Source: Escherichia coli | GTDB lineage: Bacteria; Pseudomonadota; Gammaproteobacteria; Enterobacterales; Enterobacteriaceae | DNA length: 64,000 nucleotides | Strand: one strand, 5' to 3' | Assembly: GCF_011045215.1 (NCBI RefSeq) | Contig: NZ_CP049201.1 | Part shown: in pieces, positions 32,587-58,229 of the stretch | Layout of the letters: the number at the start of each line of letters is the position of its first letter | Numbering within the stretch: position 1 is the first letter of the stretch | Notes under the pieces: model-generated | Seen by the model: the letters and a program-made list of their open reading frames with translations, nothing else | Told to the model about the DNA's origin: nothing | Databases searched by the model: none | Program-made: the position numbers and the translations under genes

Positions 32587-34665
32587 TTAAATCAATGCCG
32601 ATTTATCAATTCCCAGCCGCTTCATCCGTGACAGCAGGGTCGTGCGTTTCAGCCCCAGACGTTGCGCAGCGCCTTTAGGCCCGGCAACCACGCCGTTAGT
32701 TTCTTTCAGCACGCGAACAATCAACTGATATTCATCTTCGCCCTCCTGAGCGACAACCGTTGCGGCAGGCGGCGTTTCAGGCTCCGGTAAAGCAATATCT
32801 GGCAATGACAGCTGCAGCACGTTGCCGCGTGTTAGCAATACCGCGCGCTCAATGACGTTTTCCAGTTCGCGTACGTTACCCGGCCACTCCATATTGCTCA
32901 AGGTGCGCAACGTCTCGGCAGGAATGCTGTCGATATTGCGCCCCAGACGACGGGCAATTTTGAAGGTAAAGGCTTTCGCCAGCAGCGGAATATCTTCCGG
33001 ACGCTCGCGTAGTGGCGGAAGGTGAATCGGGAATACGTTCAGGCGGTAATAGAGATCGCTACGGAACTCACGGTCGGCGACCATTTTTTTCAGATCGCGG
33101 TTAGTCGCGGCGATTAGACGCACGTCCGTCTGAATGATTTTGTTGCTGCCGAGGCGTTCAAACTCCTGTTCCTGCAATACACGCAGCAACTTCGGCTGTA
33201 ACTCCAGTGGCATATCGCCCACTTCGTCGAGGAACAGGGAGCTTTTATCCGCCAGTTCAAAACGACCGATACGCTGGGCGCTGGCACCGGTAAAAGCCCC
33301 ACGCTCATGACCAAACAGATCGCTCTCCAGCAATCCGGCAGGCATCGCCGCGCAATTCATTTTGACCATGCGGCGATTATTACGTCCACTGAGATTATGG
33401 ATAGCACGGGCAATCAGCTCTTTACCCGTGCCAGTTTCACCGAGGATCAGCACGGTACTGTCACTTTGCGCCACCATTTCAACTTGTTTAAGCACGCTGT
33501 ACATGGCTTCGCTGCGGCCAATAATCTCGCCAAATTCACTATCAACATTGTTGAGCTGCTCGGTCAGGGCGAGGTTTTCATCAACCAGCCGTTCTTTCAG
33601 ACGATGGATTTCCTGATAGGCGAGGGCGTTATCGACAGCGATTGCCACACGTTCGGCAATCTGGCGCAGTAAATTCAGATTGGTAGTGGTAAACACTTTC
33701 TCTTCACATTGCGCCAGTTTCAGCACGCCCAGCATGGTGTCGCCAGACATCAGCGGTAACAGGCACAAGGTTTGAATCTGGTTGCCCCAGGTATCGAACA
33801 ACATGCGTTCATAGGGGGCTAAATCATCCCGCTCGTGGAGATTAATCAGCAGCATCTCTTTACTTTTGAACACGCGTTCGGTGAGGGTTCCGGCTTCATC
33901 GACTTCGCTCTGTTCGTGGGCGGGATGCTGTTTATCAAGATAGTGAGTGGAGTAGATGTTGAGTTTGTTTTTACGGTGGCTGCGTAAGACGATACTGATA
34001 TCGTCAATATCGAAATAGTAATGGATTTCTTTGGCGACTTCGCTGACCAGTTCGTCCATATCCAGGCGGGAAAGCACCGCGTTGGTGATGGCGACCAGGA
34101 TGCGGAAGTTATCGCGTTCCCGGCATAACAACTCATAGTCGACATTGTTAACGACGCGACTCTGGATTTGTTCGGTGACGACAGAAACGATCTGCGTAAA
34201 TGTTTGCAGACGATTGAACTCTTTTTCGCTCCAGGGGCGATCGTCATAACGAATAAATTCACAGCCACCAAAAATATGCCCTTCCGCCGCCAGTGGCATC
34301 AGGCAATAGTGACCAAATTTTGGGTATAGCCCACCTGCGGCCAGCTGCGGCCAGGTTTCACAAAATTCTTCGTAACTGCAATGCAGCGTATCAGGGCGCG
34401 ACAAAATGCTGCGTACCGGACCGTGTGCCAGAACAGTTTCGTCTTCATATTTAATGGGGGTGTCTTTTTCACGCGATGCGTAATAAGACGCACGTTGAGT
34501 CTGCGCTTGCCACAACACAATAGCCGCGTTGTCGGCGAGCGCAGAACGCTTTACCAGTTGCGAAAGAGCCTCACACAGCGAGGCCAGATCGGGCTGCTGC
34601 AATAGTGTCCGAGTGATGTCGAACAACCCTTGCTGTCCGAGATCACTCATCGGTGTATATGACAT
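32587..34665 (-). CDS. fhlA: Formate hydrogenlyase transcriptional activator FhlA (sigma54-dependent)
   Basis: ORF trimmed to MSYTPMSDLG (692 aa); GAF domains, AAA+ sigma54-interaction domain ([14 protein letters not shown]) and C-terminal HTH. Confidence 0.96.
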   Translation of the reverse strand: MSYTPMSDLGQQGLFDITRTLLQQPDLASLCEALSQLVKRSALADNAAIVLWQAQTQRASYYASREKDTPIKYEDETVLAHGPVRSILSRPDTLHCSYEEFCETWPQLAAGGLYPKFGHYCLMPLAAEGHIFGGCEFIRYDDRPWSEKEFNRLQTFTQIVSVVTEQIQSRVVNNVDYELLCRERDNFRILVAITNAVLSRLDMDELVSEVAKEIHYYFDIDDISIVLRSHRKNKLNIYSTHYLDKQHPAHEQSEVDEAGTLTERVFKSKEMLLINLHERDDLAPYERMLFDTWGNQIQTLCLLPLMSGDTMLGVLKLAQCEEKVFTTTNLNLLRQIAERVAIAVDNALAYQEIHRLKERLVDENLALTEQLNNVDSEFGEIIGRSEAMYSVLKQVEMVAQSDSTVLILGETGTGKELIARAIHNLSGRNNRRMVKMNCAAMPAGLLESDLFGHERGAFTGASAQRIGRFELADKSSLFLDEVGDMPLELQPKLLRVLQEQEFERLGSNKIIQTDVRLIAATNRDLKKMVADREFRSDLYYRLNVFPIHLPPLRERPEDIPLLAKAFTFKIARRLGRNIDSIPAETLRTLSNMEWPGNVRELENVIERAVLLTRGNVLQLSLPDIALPEPETPPAATVVAQEGEDEYQLIVRVLKETNGVVAGPKGAAQRLGLKRTTLLSRMKRLGIDKSALI

Positions 34666-37139: not shown

Positions 37140-38002
37140 CGCTGTGTCTCCAGCCAGTTCAGCCACTGGTCCATCCCTTCGCCGCTGGTGGCGGAAATAA
37201 GGATGATTTCAATTTCTGGATTGACTTCGCGGGCGCAGGCGATGCACTTCTCAACGTCAAAGTTGAGATACGGCAACAGGTCAACTTTGTTGAGCAGCAT
37301 CAGCGAGGCGGCGGCAAACATATGCGGATATTTCAGCGGTTTGTCTTCACCTTCGGTAACGGAAAGCACCGCCACTTTGTGTTTTTCACCGAGATCGAAG
37401 CTGGCCGGGCATACGAGGTTGCCAACGTTTTCGATAAACAGAATACCGTTATCGTCCAGTGGCAGGCGCGGTGCGGCGTCGGCAATCATCTGTGCGTCAA
37501 GATGGCAGCCTTTACCGGTGTTCACCTGAATCGCTGGTGTGCCGGTAGCGCGAATGCGTGCGGCATCGTTCACGGTTTGCTGGTCACCTTCAATAACCGC
37601 GCACGGAACGCTGTCTTTCAGGCGCATTAAGGTTTCCGTCAGCAGGGTGGTTTTACCGGAACCAGGGCTGGAAACCAGGTTGAGCACCAGTTGCTTGCGG
37701 GCAGCAAAGCGCGCGCGGTTGCGTTCAGCCAGACGGTTGTTTTTGTCCAGCACGTCAATTTCGACTTCCAGCATCCGGCGCTGGCTCATGCCCGGCGCGT
37801 GAGTGCCCGCTTCGCCATGACCGTAATGCAGGTCGCCTTCTTCAGTCTGGCTGGGGGTAAATTCAGGCGCTTTAATGCCGGTGATTTTCATCTTCGGGCG
37901 TGCCGCCGGGGCAAATGGCGCGCTACGAAACGCGGAATGAGGGTTATGTTCATCACCCTCGATATACAGGTTGCCTTCACCGCAACCGCATGTTGTACAC
38001 AT
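37130..38002 (-). CDS. hypB: Hydrogenase nickel-insertion GTPase HypB
   Basis: 290 aa; N-terminal MCTTCGCG metal site and P-loop GSGKTT. Confidence 0.96.
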
Positions 38003-38005
38003 CGC

Positions 38006-38356
38006 TCACTCCTGGTCTATTTCTATCCGCCGAATCTGTAAACCGTCGTCTGCCACAATCTGTAGCATGTCACCATGACACTGTGGACAGCGGCGGACGC
38101 GCTGGGTCAGTAGCGTCACATACTGTTGGCATGTTTCACACCAGCATTCGGCCTCTTGTTCTTCGAGGTGCAGTTTACAACCTTCCGCCACGCTGCCGCG
38201 GCAAACCAGATCAAAACAAAAGGCAAGAGAGCTGGTTTCGACACAAGAAAATGCGCCAATTTTGAGCCAGACCCCAGTTACGCGTTTTGCGCCGTGTTTT
38301 GCGGCCTGCTGTTCGATCAATTCCAGTGCCCGTTGGCAGAGGGTTATTTCGTGCAT
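38006..38356 (-). CDS. hypA: Hydrogenase nickel-incorporation protein HypA
   Basis: ORF trimmed to MHEITLCQRAL (116 aa); zinc-site CxxC...CxxC. Confidence 0.95.
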   Translation of the reverse strand: MHEITLCQRALELIEQQAAKHGAKRVTGVWLKIGAFSCVETSSLAFCFDLVCRGSVAEGCKLHLEEQEAECWCETCQQYVTLLTQRVRRCPQCHGDMLQIVADDGLQIRRIEIDQE

Positions 38357-38385
38357 ATCGCCTCCCATTAACTATTGCCAGCTAC

Positions 38386-38403
38386 AAGCAATAATTGTGC
38401 CAG
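38386..38403 (-). promoter_or_regulatory. Candidate sigma54 promoter for the hyp operon
   Basis: Minus-strand TGGCAC-N6-TGCT (GG-N10-GC spacing) about 30 nt upstream of the hypA start. Confidence 0.5.
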
Positions 38404-38515
38404 TGTTGATTATCCCTGCAGTGAATAATGTCGATGATGTCGAAATGACACGTCGACACGGCGACGAAATTCACCAAAATCTTAAAAATCGCTTTAATAA
38501 CAATAAATTAAAAGT

Positions 38516-38531
38516 TGGCACAAAAAATGCT
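38516..38531 (+). promoter_or_regulatory. Candidate sigma54 promoter for the hyc operon
   Basis: TGGCAC-N6-TGC with GG-N10-GC spacing, about 40 nt upstream of the hycA start. Confidence 0.5.
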
Positions 38532-38567
38532 TAAAGCTGGCATCTCTGTTAAACGGGTAACCTGACA

Positions 38568-39029
38568 ATGACTATTTGGGAAATAAGCGAGAAAGCCGAT
38601 TACATCGCACAGCGGCATCGTCGCCTACAGGACCAGTGGCACATCTACTGCAATTCGCTGGTTCAGGGGATCACGTTATCGAAAGCGCGCCTGCATCACG
38701 CCATGAGCTGCGCGCCGGACAAAGAACTCTGTTTCGTCCTTTTTGAACATTTTCGTATTTACGTCACCCTGGCGGATGGCTTTAACAGCCACACCATCGA
38801 GTATTACGTCGAAACAAAAGATGGCGAAGACAAACAGCGGATTGCGCAGGCGCAACTGAGCATTGACGGCATGATTGATGGCAAGGTCAACATCCGCGAT
38901 CGCGAACAGGTTCTGGAACACTATCTCGAAAAAATCGCTGGCGTTTACGACAGCTTATACACCGCCATTGAAAACAATGTGCCGGTGAATTTAAGCCAAC
39001 TGGTAAAGGGACAAAGCCCGGCAGCATGA
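38568..39029 (+). CDS. hycA: Formate hydrogenlyase regulatory protein HycA
   Basis: 153 aa; first gene of the hyc operon, divergent from hypA. Confidence 0.93.
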   Translation: MTIWEISEKADYIAQRHRRLQDQWHIYCNSLVQGITLSKARLHHAMSCAPDKELCFVLFEHFRIYVTLADGFNSHTIEYYVETKDGEDKQRIAQAQLSIDGMIDGKVNIRDREQVLEHYLEKIAGVYDSLYTAIENNVPVNLSQLVKGQSPAA

Positions 39030-39153
39030 GCTGAGGCTTTGCCCGTTTTGCAGGCGTTACGCCTGTTTGGGGATGGGCGTGTCGATGAGTGTCGAAAATG
39101 ACATTTCATCGGCATGTTTTCGTCAAAAATGACAATCACCTGAGGAATGCCTG

Positions 39154-39765
39154 GTGAATCGTTTTGTAATTGCTGACTCCACGCTCTGTATCGGCTGCCA
39201 CACTTGTGAGGCCGCCTGTTCAGAGACGCATCGCCAGCACGGCCTGCAATCAATGCCGCGCCTGAGAGTGATGCTAAATGAAAAAGAATCTGCGCCGCAG
39301 CTCTGTCACCACTGTGAAGATGCACCCTGCGCGGTGGTCTGCCCGGTTAACGCCATCACCCGCGTTGATGGGGCCGTGCAGTTGAATGAAAGTCTGTGCG
39401 TAAGCTGCAAACTGTGCGGCATCGCCTGCCCGTTTGGCGCAATCGAATTTTCCGGCAGCCGTCCGCTGGATATTCCGGCAAACGCCAATACCCCGAAAGC
39501 GCCACCGGCACCGCCTGCTCCGGCGCGTGTCAGCACATTGCTTGACTGGGTGCCAGGTATTCGCGCGATCGCCGTCAAATGTGACCTTTGTAGCTTTGAT
39601 GAACAAGGTCCGGCCTGCGTGCGGATGTGCCCGACTAAAGCCCTGCATCTGGTGGATAACACCGATATCGCCCGCGTCAGCAAACGTAAGCGTGAGCTGA
39701 CCTTTAACACGGACTTTGGCGATCTCACCTTGTTTCAGCAGGCTCAAAGTGGAGAGGCTAAATGA
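39154..39765 (+). CDS. hycB: Formate hydrogenlyase subunit 2 (4Fe-4S ferredoxin)
   Basis: 203 aa; multiple CxxCxxCxxxCP clusters. Confidence 0.95.
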   Translation: MNRFVIADSTLCIGCHTCEAACSETHRQHGLQSMPRLRVMLNEKESAPQLCHHCEDAPCAVVCPVNAITRVDGAVQLNESLCVSCKLCGIACPFGAIEFSGSRPLDIPANANTPKAPPAPPAPARVSTLLDWVPGIRAIAVKCDLCSFDEQGPACVRMCPTKALHLVDNTDIARVSKRKRELTFNTDFGDLTLFQQAQSGEAK

Positions 39766-50749: not shown

Positions 50750-50897
50750 ACATTGTCATCACATGTCATCGTCACTAGTGTCGATGACATCTTTTTTCCT
50801 GCATTACAGAAATTAATTTCCTTAAATAACAGTGAATTAAAAACTGGCATGATTTGTGAATGTATCGGCGCATTAACTGTCATTGCTGGAGAATTTG

Positions 50898-56574: not shown

Positions 56575-56592
56575 TTGCAGATTGCGTGCCAG
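56575..56592 (-). promoter_or_regulatory. Candidate sigma54 promoter of norVW
   Basis: Minus-strand TGGCAC-N6-TGCA (GG-N10-GC) about 45 nt upstream of the norV start. Confidence 0.6.
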
Positions 56593-56646: not shown

Positions 56647-56702
56647 GTCAAAATGACTATCAATAAAATGGTCGATATGACAATATGTATAGTCAAATTG
56701 AC
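56647..56702. promoter_or_regulatory. Three NorR-type enhancer sites (GT-N7-AC) in the norR-norV intergenic region
   Basis: gtcaaaatgac (56647-56657), gtcgatatgac (56671-56681), gtcaaattgac (56692-56702). Confidence 0.65.
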
Positions 56703-56714
56703 AGTGAGGCAAAG

Positions 56715-58229
56715 ATGAGTTTTTCCGTTGATGTGCTGGCGAATATCGCCATCGAATTGCAGCGTGGGATTGGTCATCAGGATCGTTTTCAGCGCCTGAT
56801 CACCACGCTGCGTCAGGTGCTGGAGTGCGATGCGTCTGCGTTGCTACGTTACGACTCGCGGCAGTTTATTCCGCTTGCCATCGACGGGCTGGCGAAGGAT
56901 GTACTCGGTAGACGCTTTGCGCTGGAAGGTCATCCACGGCTGGAAGCGATTGCCCGCGCGGGTGATGTGGTGCGCTTTCCCGCAGACAGCGAATTGCCCG
57001 ATCCCTATGATGGTTTGATTCCCGGACAGGAGAGTCTGAAGGTCCACGCCTGCGTTGGTCTGCCATTGTTTGCCGGGCAAAACCTGATCGGCGCATTGAC
57101 GCTCGACGGGATGCAGCCCGATCAGTTCGATGTTTTCAGCGACGAAGAGTTACGCCTGATTGCCGCGCTGGCGGCGGGAGCGTTAAGCAATGCGTTGCTG
57201 ATTGAGCAACTGGAAAGCCAGAATATGCTGCCGGGCGATGCCGCTCCATTTGAAGCGGTGAAACAGACGCAGATGATTGGCTTGTCCCCTGGCATGACGC
57301 AACTGAAAAAAGAGATTGAGATTGTGGCGGCGTCCGATCTCAACGTCCTGATCAGCGGTGAGACGGGAACCGGTAAGGAGCTGGTGGCGAAAGCGATTCA
57401 TGAAGCCTCGCCACGGGCGGTGAATCCGCTGGTCTATCTCAACTGTGCCGCACTGCCGGAAAGTGTGGCGGAAAGTGAGTTGTTCGGGCATGTGAAAGGA
57501 GCGTTTACTGGCGCTATTAGTAACCGCAGCGGGAAGTTTGAAATGGCGGATAACGGCACGCTGTTTCTCGATGAGATCGGCGAGTTGTCGTTGGCATTGC
57601 AGGCCAAGCTGCTGAGAGTGTTGCAGTATGGCGATATTCAGCGCGTTGGCGATGACCGCAGTTTGCGGGTCGATGTGCGCGTGCTGGCGGCGACTAACCG
57701 CGACTTACGCGAAGAGGTGCTGGCAGGGCGATTCCGCGCCGATTTGTTTCATCGCCTGAGTGTGTTTCCACTTTCGGTGCCGCCGCTGCGTGAGCGGGGC
57801 GATGATGTCATTCTGCTGGCGGGGTATTTCTGCGAGCAGTGTCGTTTGCGGCAGGGGCTCTCCCGCGTGGTATTAAGTGCCGGGGCGCGAAATTTACTGC
57901 AACACTACAGTTTTCCGGGAAACGTGCGCGAACTGGAACATGCTATTCATCGGGCGGTAGTGCTGGCGAGAGCCACCCGCAGCGGCGATGAAGTGATTCT
58001 TGAGGCGCAACATTTTGCTTTTCCTGAGGTGACGTTGCCGCCGCCAGAAGTGGCGGCGGTGCCCGTTGTTAAGCAAAACCTGCGTGAAGCGACAGAAGCG
58101 TTTCAGCGTGAAACTATTCGTCAGGCACTGGCACAAAATCATCACAACTGGGCTGCCTGCGCGCGGATGCTGGAAACCGACGTCGCCAACCTGCATCGGC
58201 TGGCGAAACGTCTGGGATTGAAGGATTAA
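56715..58229 (+). CDS. norR: Anaerobic nitric oxide reductase transcriptional regulator NorR (sigma54-dependent)
   Basis: ORF trimmed to [16 protein letters not shown] (504 aa); GAF domain, AAA+ domain ([14 protein letters not shown]), C-terminal HTH. Confidence 0.96.

Follow-up and report, generated by a model that had tools for sequence, protein, structure and literature searches.

The 211-bp region between hypA and hycA of Escherichia coli (positions 38357-38567) almost certainly holds the two divergent sigma54 (RpoN) promoters of the formate regulon, and FhlA-driven, enhancer-dependent initiation is the best explanation of its layout. All positions refer to the window, by which we mean the whole stretch of DNA analysed (64 kb). 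One promoter, hypAp, would read leftward into hypABCDE-fhlA, and the other, hycAp, would read rightward into hycABCDEFGHI. The divergent hyp/hyc sigma54 promoters are already known and are a textbook feature, described since 1990; the original description, by Lutz et al. (1990, Mol Microbiol 4:13), carries a title that begins 'Characterization of divergent NtrA-dependent promoters...'.

The spacer has a G+C content of 39%, compared to 53% for the whole window. Many E. coli chromosomes are 100% identical to it over 1 kb around the feature, and are annotated with hypB, hypA and hycA. In E. coli K-12 MG1655, hycI...hycA lie on one strand and hypABCDE-fhlA on the other. The window has the opposite orientation to MG1655, such that a window coordinate equals 2889003 minus the U00096.3 coordinate. 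The hypA coding sequence, first of the hypABCDE-fhlA genes, occupies 38006-38356 on the minus strand (NCBIfam HypA, E-value 9.5e-73; identical E. coli records) and is preceded by the Shine-Dalgarno sequence GGAGG, the complement of 38361-38365. Its start is annotated at 38356, and the open reading frame list runs to an in-frame ATG farther upstream, at 38368. On the plus strand, hycA (38568-39029; NCBIfam HycA equivalog, E-value 1.3e-90, and annotation) is the first gene of hycABCDEFGHI and is annotated as a regulator counteracting FhlA. FhlA itself, a formate-responsive sigma54 activator with GAF, AAA+ and HTH domains, is encoded at 32587-34665 on the minus strand (NCBIfam FhlA equivalog, 1548.6 bits over residues 1-692; MG1655 annotation). 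The NCBIfam models for all three genes scored above their curated cut-offs. The earlier note on this DNA had placed the activator gene about 4 kb upstream. The gene is indeed present, 3.7-5.8 kb away at lower coordinates, but in terms of transcription it lies downstream of the hyp promoter, since it shares the strand of hypA and closes the hypABCDE-fhlA transcription unit. A search of 37800-39200 against Rfam, at E-values up to 1, gave no structured-RNA match.

Both strands of the spacer were claimed to carry a TGGCAC-N6-TGC(A/T) element with GG-N10-GC spacing, and both motifs are found where they had been placed. The hyp element is the 17-mer CTGGCACAATTATTGCT (38403..38387, minus strand, directed toward hypA), and the hyc element is TTGGCACAAAAAATGCT (38515-38531, plus strand, directed toward hycA). 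Each fits the sigma54 promoter pattern TGGCAC-N5-TTGCW, with GG and GC exactly 10 nt apart, and each points at a gene shortly downstream. The start predicted for hyp, at about 38376, leaves a 20-nt leader to the hypA ATG at 38356, and the start predicted for hyc, at about 38542, a 26-nt leader to the hycA ATG at 38568. The two promoters also form an imperfect inverted repeat of 27 nt (38376-38402 and 38516-38542), 81% complementary, which spans from the -24 element to approximately +1 (TGGCACAA..TGCTT..AGCTGGCA); the portion of this repeat downstream of -12 is unconserved outside Escherichia.

The pattern TGGCAC-N6-TGCW occurs four times in the 64-kb window, compared to 0.46 expected, and none of 100 shuffles reached four matches. 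Apart from the two sites in the spacer (38387-38402, minus strand, and 38516-38531, plus strand), the matches lie inside hycA (38637-38652, plus strand) and in the norV promoter (56576-56591, minus strand). The looser pattern TGGC-N8-TGCW was not enriched in the same window (10 matches vs 7.5 expected), and the signal therefore resides in the full consensus. We also scanned both strands with a position weight matrix built from 29 E. coli sigma54 ChIP-seq sites that fall outside the window (Bonocora et al. 2015, Table 1). The four highest scores belonged to the hyp element (22.1 bits, rank 1), the hyc element (17.5, rank 2), the norV promoter (17.0) and the site inside hycA (16.4), while the maxima over 30 shuffles had a mean of 14.4 bits and reached 18.0 at the highest. 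Taken alone, the hyc score is near the top of the chance range, within the shuffle maxima; chance is nevertheless untenable for this element, given where it lies, which way it points and that all 89 orthologous loci conserve it.

Published occupancy data bear directly on these elements. Both 17-mers are letter-identical to published sigma54 ChIP-seq sites, which upholds the earlier note in its central claim of divergent sigma54 promoters between hypA and hycA, and it is through this sequence identity that sigma54 occupancy is assigned to both. Table 1 of Bonocora et al. (2015, PMC4591121) lists TTGGCACAAAAAATGCT as OS27, on the minus strand, for hycA, with 26 bp from predicted start to gene and an occupancy score of 91. 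It lists CTGGCACAATTATTGCT as OS28, on the plus strand, for hypA, with 20 bp from predicted start to gene and a score of 201, the highest among the rows of that table examined and just above glmY (200). Both sites are flagged 'C' there, for experimentally confirmed in EcoCyc. After correction for a 1978-bp offset between genome versions, their coordinates convert to window positions 38542 and 38376, as predicted starts. The hycA/hypA spacer is also among the RpoN holoenzyme targets of a genomic SELEX study. The Salmonella Typhimurium hycA/hypA promoters are likewise divergent; they bind sigma54 by ChIP-chip, FhlA is their assigned activator, and a promiscuous enhancer-binding protein raised hyc 26-fold and hyp 5.6-fold (Samuels et al. 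2013). The Salmonella elements (TGGCATGGAAAATGCTTA and TGGCATAAATATTGCTTT) differ in spacer bases, with T for C after GGCA.

The two elements are also conserved in orthologous loci. Orthologous loci were sampled with one genome per species, using the first eight hypA codons as a degenerate pattern, a query that is unbiased as to the spacer. A divergent hycA homologue (32-99% protein identity) was present within 900 bp in 89 of the 120 loci returned. These include Escherichia, Citrobacter, Enterobacter, Kluyvera, Kosakonia, Cedecea and Buttiauxella, but also Serratia, Rahnella, Yersinia ruckeri, Pantoea and others. Both -24/-12 elements were kept in 89/89 loci. The hyp-side element retained 7/7 scored consensus positions in every one, and the hyc-side element retained 6/7 in 71 loci and 5/7 in the other 18; in shuffled spacers, 6/7 positions were reached in 0.2% of trials and 7/7 never. 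Sequence between -24 and -12 differs freely from locus to locus, as expected if selection acts on the two elements themselves. The distance from the -12 C to the start codon is 35-38 nt for hyc and 28-35 nt for hyp where HycA identity to E. coli is at least 58%, and is wider in more distant genera, where the hycA start is less certain. An alignment of 58 sequences with spacers of 185-240 bp showed conservation confined to a few blocks, namely the hypA ribosome-binding site, both -24/-12 elements, a block at the centre, an A/T-rich block adjoining the hyc -24 element on its upstream side, and the leader of hycA. The central block, ATGWCGAYGMTGWCGAAATGACAYGTCR, corresponds to 38428-38455 of the window, and AAATGACA is invariant within it.

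Two weak sigma70-like matches in the spacer (9 of 12 positions each, at 38368-38395 and 38453-38480) could be taken to mean that the motif pairs are a chance occurrence or a relic, and that the operons are transcribed from sigma70 promoters. The probability of this is negligible, and the evidence already contradicts it. Scanning the spacer for sigma70 promoters and terminators gave matches at chance level only (two sigma70-like matches vs 1.1 expected), both on the plus strand, and the first of them points away from hypA. Furthermore, both sites are sigma54-occupied in vivo, all 89 loci keep the -24/-12 elements, and an FNR ChIP-seq study reported hyc without a sigma70 peak and described it as a sigma-N site.

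A pair of sigma54 promoters calls for an activator and an enhancer. In sigma54 systems generally, the polymerase waits as a closed complex until an enhancer-bound AAA+ activator contacts it via DNA looping and opens it by ATP hydrolysis. Accumulation of formate activates FhlA, which then induces hyc, hyp, fdhF and hydN-hypF, and reviews name FhlA as the activator of these promoters. At the hyp/hyc locus, sigma54 RNA polymerase would sit on each -24/-12 element as a closed complex, unable to start alone, and formate-activated FhlA would bind enhancer DNA and open the promoters by ATP hydrolysis. FhlA is encoded at the locus and conserved enhancer-like DNA is present.

The main candidate for an FhlA binding region inside the spacer, which we refer to as UAS-1, is TGTCGATGATGTCGAAATGACACGTCGACACGGCGACGAAATTC (38429..38472). 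It shows the highest conservation outside the promoters in the 58-sequence alignment, and its invariant core, TGTCGAAATGACACGTCG (38438-38455), lies between the two promoters. Counted from the hyc start, UAS-1 spans -113 to -70, a range within the expected enhancer location of about 70-150 bp upstream of a sigma54 start; counted from the hyp start, it spans -53 to -96. Its spacing from hycAp is restricted. The distance from the start of the core to the hyc -24 G is 56 bp in 3 loci, 67-70 bp in 23 and 78-80 bp in 37, that is, in steps of ∼11 bp, or about one helical turn. The conservation and position of UAS-1, together with the literature assigning FhlA to the hyc and hyp operons, suggest that FhlA occupies these bases.

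Motif searching gave a different result. A 16-bp FhlA consensus, CATTTCGTACGAAATG, is quoted in a review that attributes it to Leonhartsberger 2000, and is, as quoted, an idealised palindrome. The scan for FhlA upstream activating sequences that the earlier note had proposed came back empty for this consensus, with no match at up to five mismatches in 38357-38567. The half-site CGAAATG at 38441 is the sole part of CATTTCGTACGAAATG present in the spacer.

Between UAS-1 and the hyc -24 element lies an IHF-like site, TAACAATAAATTA (38498-38510, plus strand), at -44 to -32 of the hyc start. It agrees with WATCAANNNNTTR at 12 of 13 positions, with one mismatch, and belongs to the conserved A/T-rich block of the alignment. 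Many orthologous loci carry a strict or one-mismatch IHF-type motif 19-20 nt upstream of the hyc -24 G, and strict WATCAANNNNTTR matches occur at this offset in more than 20 of them. Judged from the motif and its placement, IHF may bind at 38498-38510. IHF reportedly stimulates hyc (Hopper et al. 1994). The promoter hycAp would then be a rigid module composed of the UAS-1 core (38438-38455), the IHF-type bend site (38498-38510) and the -24/-12 element (38515-38531). An FNR-like box, TTAATAACAATAAA (38494-38507), overlaps the IHF-like site. It was the sole box with up to three mismatches in a search around a published FNR ChIP-seq summit, and lies ∼160 bp from it, so that the summit has no good box close by. 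Myers 2013 assigned this summit (2,848,688 in U00096.2) to hyc; in the window it falls at about 38337, at the 5' end of hypA.

Spacing on the hyp side is of another kind. Across loci, UAS-1 and the hyp -24 element are anywhere from 30 to 627 bp apart. Long spacers were examined in Buttiauxella, Cedecea and Shimwellia; there the added DNA, GC-rich and repeat-like, sits on the hyp side of UAS-1 and not on its hyc side, and the hyp promoter of these three genera has no second enhancer-like cluster beside it. The hyp-side insertions are palindromic, repeat-like and GC-rich in loci L086, L093, L035, L050, L025 and L066, and the spacer of Buttiauxella agrestis (L103) measures 801 bp.

A second copy of the enhancer core, UAS-2, was found outside the hypA-hycA spacer, between hycA and hycB (39080-39134). 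It reads TGTCGATGAGTGTCGAAAATGACA...GTTTTCGTCAAAAATGACA, also written TGTCGATGAGTGTCGAAAATGACA...TTTTCGTCAAAAATGACA, and nearly repeats the UAS-1 core in its first half (TGTCGATGATGTCGAAATGACA). Neither UAS-1 nor UAS-2 figures in the earlier note. It scores 27.8 bits with the UAS-1 orthologue matrix when one extra A is allowed; the next-best score in the window is 4.6 bits. UAS-2 ends 20 nt before the hycB GTG at 39154. Of the 19 genera displayed, 18 carry a similar copy that stops ∼20 nt short of the hycB start codon; the exception is a Citrobacter werkmanii fragment, which is cut off 16 nt past hycA and shows nothing. A strict motif search recovers UAS-2 in 26 of 68 loci. Directly 3' of the hycA stop, and 5' of UAS-2, there is a hairpin, CAGGCG-TTA-CGCCTG followed by TTTGGGG (39051-39067), which the terminator scan did not call.

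Pattern scans of the window detected no sigma54 element adjoining UAS-2, which must therefore work from afar. Relative to the hyp start it spans -704 to -758, so that at about -700 from hypAp it is well outside the usual 70-150 bp; relative to the hyc start it spans +538 to +592, some 560 bp downstream of hycAp. Which enhancer serves hypAp is something we infer from spacing. The gap between UAS-1 and the hyp -24 element is cramped (∼40 bp) and spacing on the hyp side is free, and for these reasons we lean, if only slightly, towards UAS-2 as the main hyp enhancer. The promoter hypAp, which tolerates variable spacing, would then probably be driven by UAS-2 from ∼700 bp upstream, possibly together with UAS-1.

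The location of UAS-1 between the two promoters is also what would be seen if it were a single enhancer shared by both, with UAS-2 in an auxiliary role or otherwise used, perhaps to hold FhlA in reserve or to take part in looping. We regard this arrangement as a serious alternative, though the less likely one. Enhancers work regardless of orientation in the general account of enhancer-binding proteins, and UAS-1 is 37-38 or 48-51 bp from the hyp -24 element in most genera, which hints at helical steps on that side as well. However, ∼40 bp is a very short distance for looping, and no bend-site candidate was identified on the hyp side of UAS-1. The hyp-side distance, moreover, varies between 30 and 627 bp while the hyc-side distance is locked, and UAS-2, with no promoter adjoining it, is itself kept in the genera inspected. 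FhlA reportedly also binds between hycA and hycB (Schlensog et al. 1994), which speaks against a single shared enhancer.

E. coli K-12 has the same arrangement. It shares with the window the exact -24/-12 17-mers of hycAp and hypAp, the exact sequences of UAS-1, UAS-2 and the IHF-like site, and the order of the genes, and its spacer is also 211 bp long. Seven single-base differences distinguish the spacer from that of MG1655 (38420, 38474, 38476-38478, 38480 and 38491). All of them fall outside the conserved elements, and five of them sit together at 38474-38480, where the sequence separating UAS-1 from the IHF-like site is not conserved.

The sigma54-like match inside hycA, GTGGCACATCTACTGCA (38636-38652, plus strand), coincides with hycA codons 24-28 (W-H-I-Y-C). 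As a functional internal promoter it would give a hycB-I transcript without the antagonist gene hycA. At 16.4 bits it ranks fourth in the window and outscores the median training site, which would suit such a role, and many intragenic sigma54 sites are described in E. coli by Bonocora et al. (2015, PMC4591121). A functional promoter at this position is nonetheless highly improbable. The site is absent from the published ChIP-seq tables and from the supplementary files examined; at 121 bp from a strong peak, however, a site may escape resolution by ChIP-seq. The motif coincides with a conserved peptide, W-(H/R/Q)-x-Y-C. Among the 60 orthologues that keep both Trp and Cys, the Cys codon is TGC in 46 and TGT, which destroys the -12 GC, in 14. 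The His is often Arg, and no more than 25 of 88 loci retain the motif in full. This codon-level comparison led us to reject the site as a constrained promoter, and since the motif follows the peptide across orthologues, the match appears to be a by-product of coding sequence. There is only a very slim chance that it binds holoenzyme as an internal promoter or a roadblock, possibly with UAS-2; if it did, hycB-I would be expressed without the FhlA antagonist HycA.

Related promoters place the hyp/hyc pair in context. The other FhlA-regulated transcription units, hydN-hypF and fdhF, have sigma54 sites and clusters of TGTCA/TGACA/TTTCGTC units upstream, at about -60 to -110, and FhlA is their listed activator; unlike the divergent hyp/hyc pair, they are single promoters. 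The hydN-hypF promoter lies in the window as CTGGCATGATTTGTGAA (50844-50860, plus strand), identical to site OS26; its -12 element departs from the consensus (GTGAA; GA for GC). TGTCA/TGACA repeats (TTGTCATCACATGTCATCGTCACTAGTGTCGATGACA) are found upstream of it, in the region 50754-50792. TGWCR and TTTCGTC units are common to the regions upstream of hydN and fdhF. Their enhancers cannot be matched to UAS-1 unless gaps are introduced and align poorly (49% mean column identity); aligning the four enhancer regions with gaps allowed was uninformative. The UAS-1 orthologue matrix, which is over-fitted, recovers UAS-2 but neither the hydN nor the fdhF enhancer, and the UAS-1 motif as defined here is therefore specific to the hyp/hyc locus.

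Other divergent sigma54 pairs occur in E. coli, for example zraP/zraS (OS38 and OS39), in which two back-to-back sigma54 promoters likewise share one short regulatory spacer. There too the activator gene is part of one of the operons; the activator (ZraR) and the signal differ, and there is no antagonist gene. The norV promoter, CTGGCACGCAATCTGCA (56576-56592, minus strand), is identical to ChIP-seq site OS25, and an open reading frame for a NorR-type activator (56685-58229, plus strand) is divergent from it.

For the flagged promoters themselves there is nothing new, and the comparative results are modest refinements. These results, namely that UAS-1 is locked in helical phase to hycAp, that the hyp side is free in its spacing, and that the genera inspected conserve UAS-2 ahead of hycB, could be of use in engineering promoters for hydrogen production. 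The hyp/hyc spacer is the control point of formate hydrogenlyase, the hydrogen producer in fermenting E. coli and related bacteria, and its promoters switch on the genes for hydrogenase-3 and its maturation upon formate accumulation. The feedback loops are read from gene order, in that fhlA ends the hyp unit and hycA starts the hyc unit. The hyp transcript would include fhlA and so provide positive feedback, while the hyc transcript would begin with the gene for the FhlA antagonist, hycA, and so provide negative feedback. The locus represents a classic divergent sigma54 pair, with positive feedback through fhlA and negative feedback through hycA.
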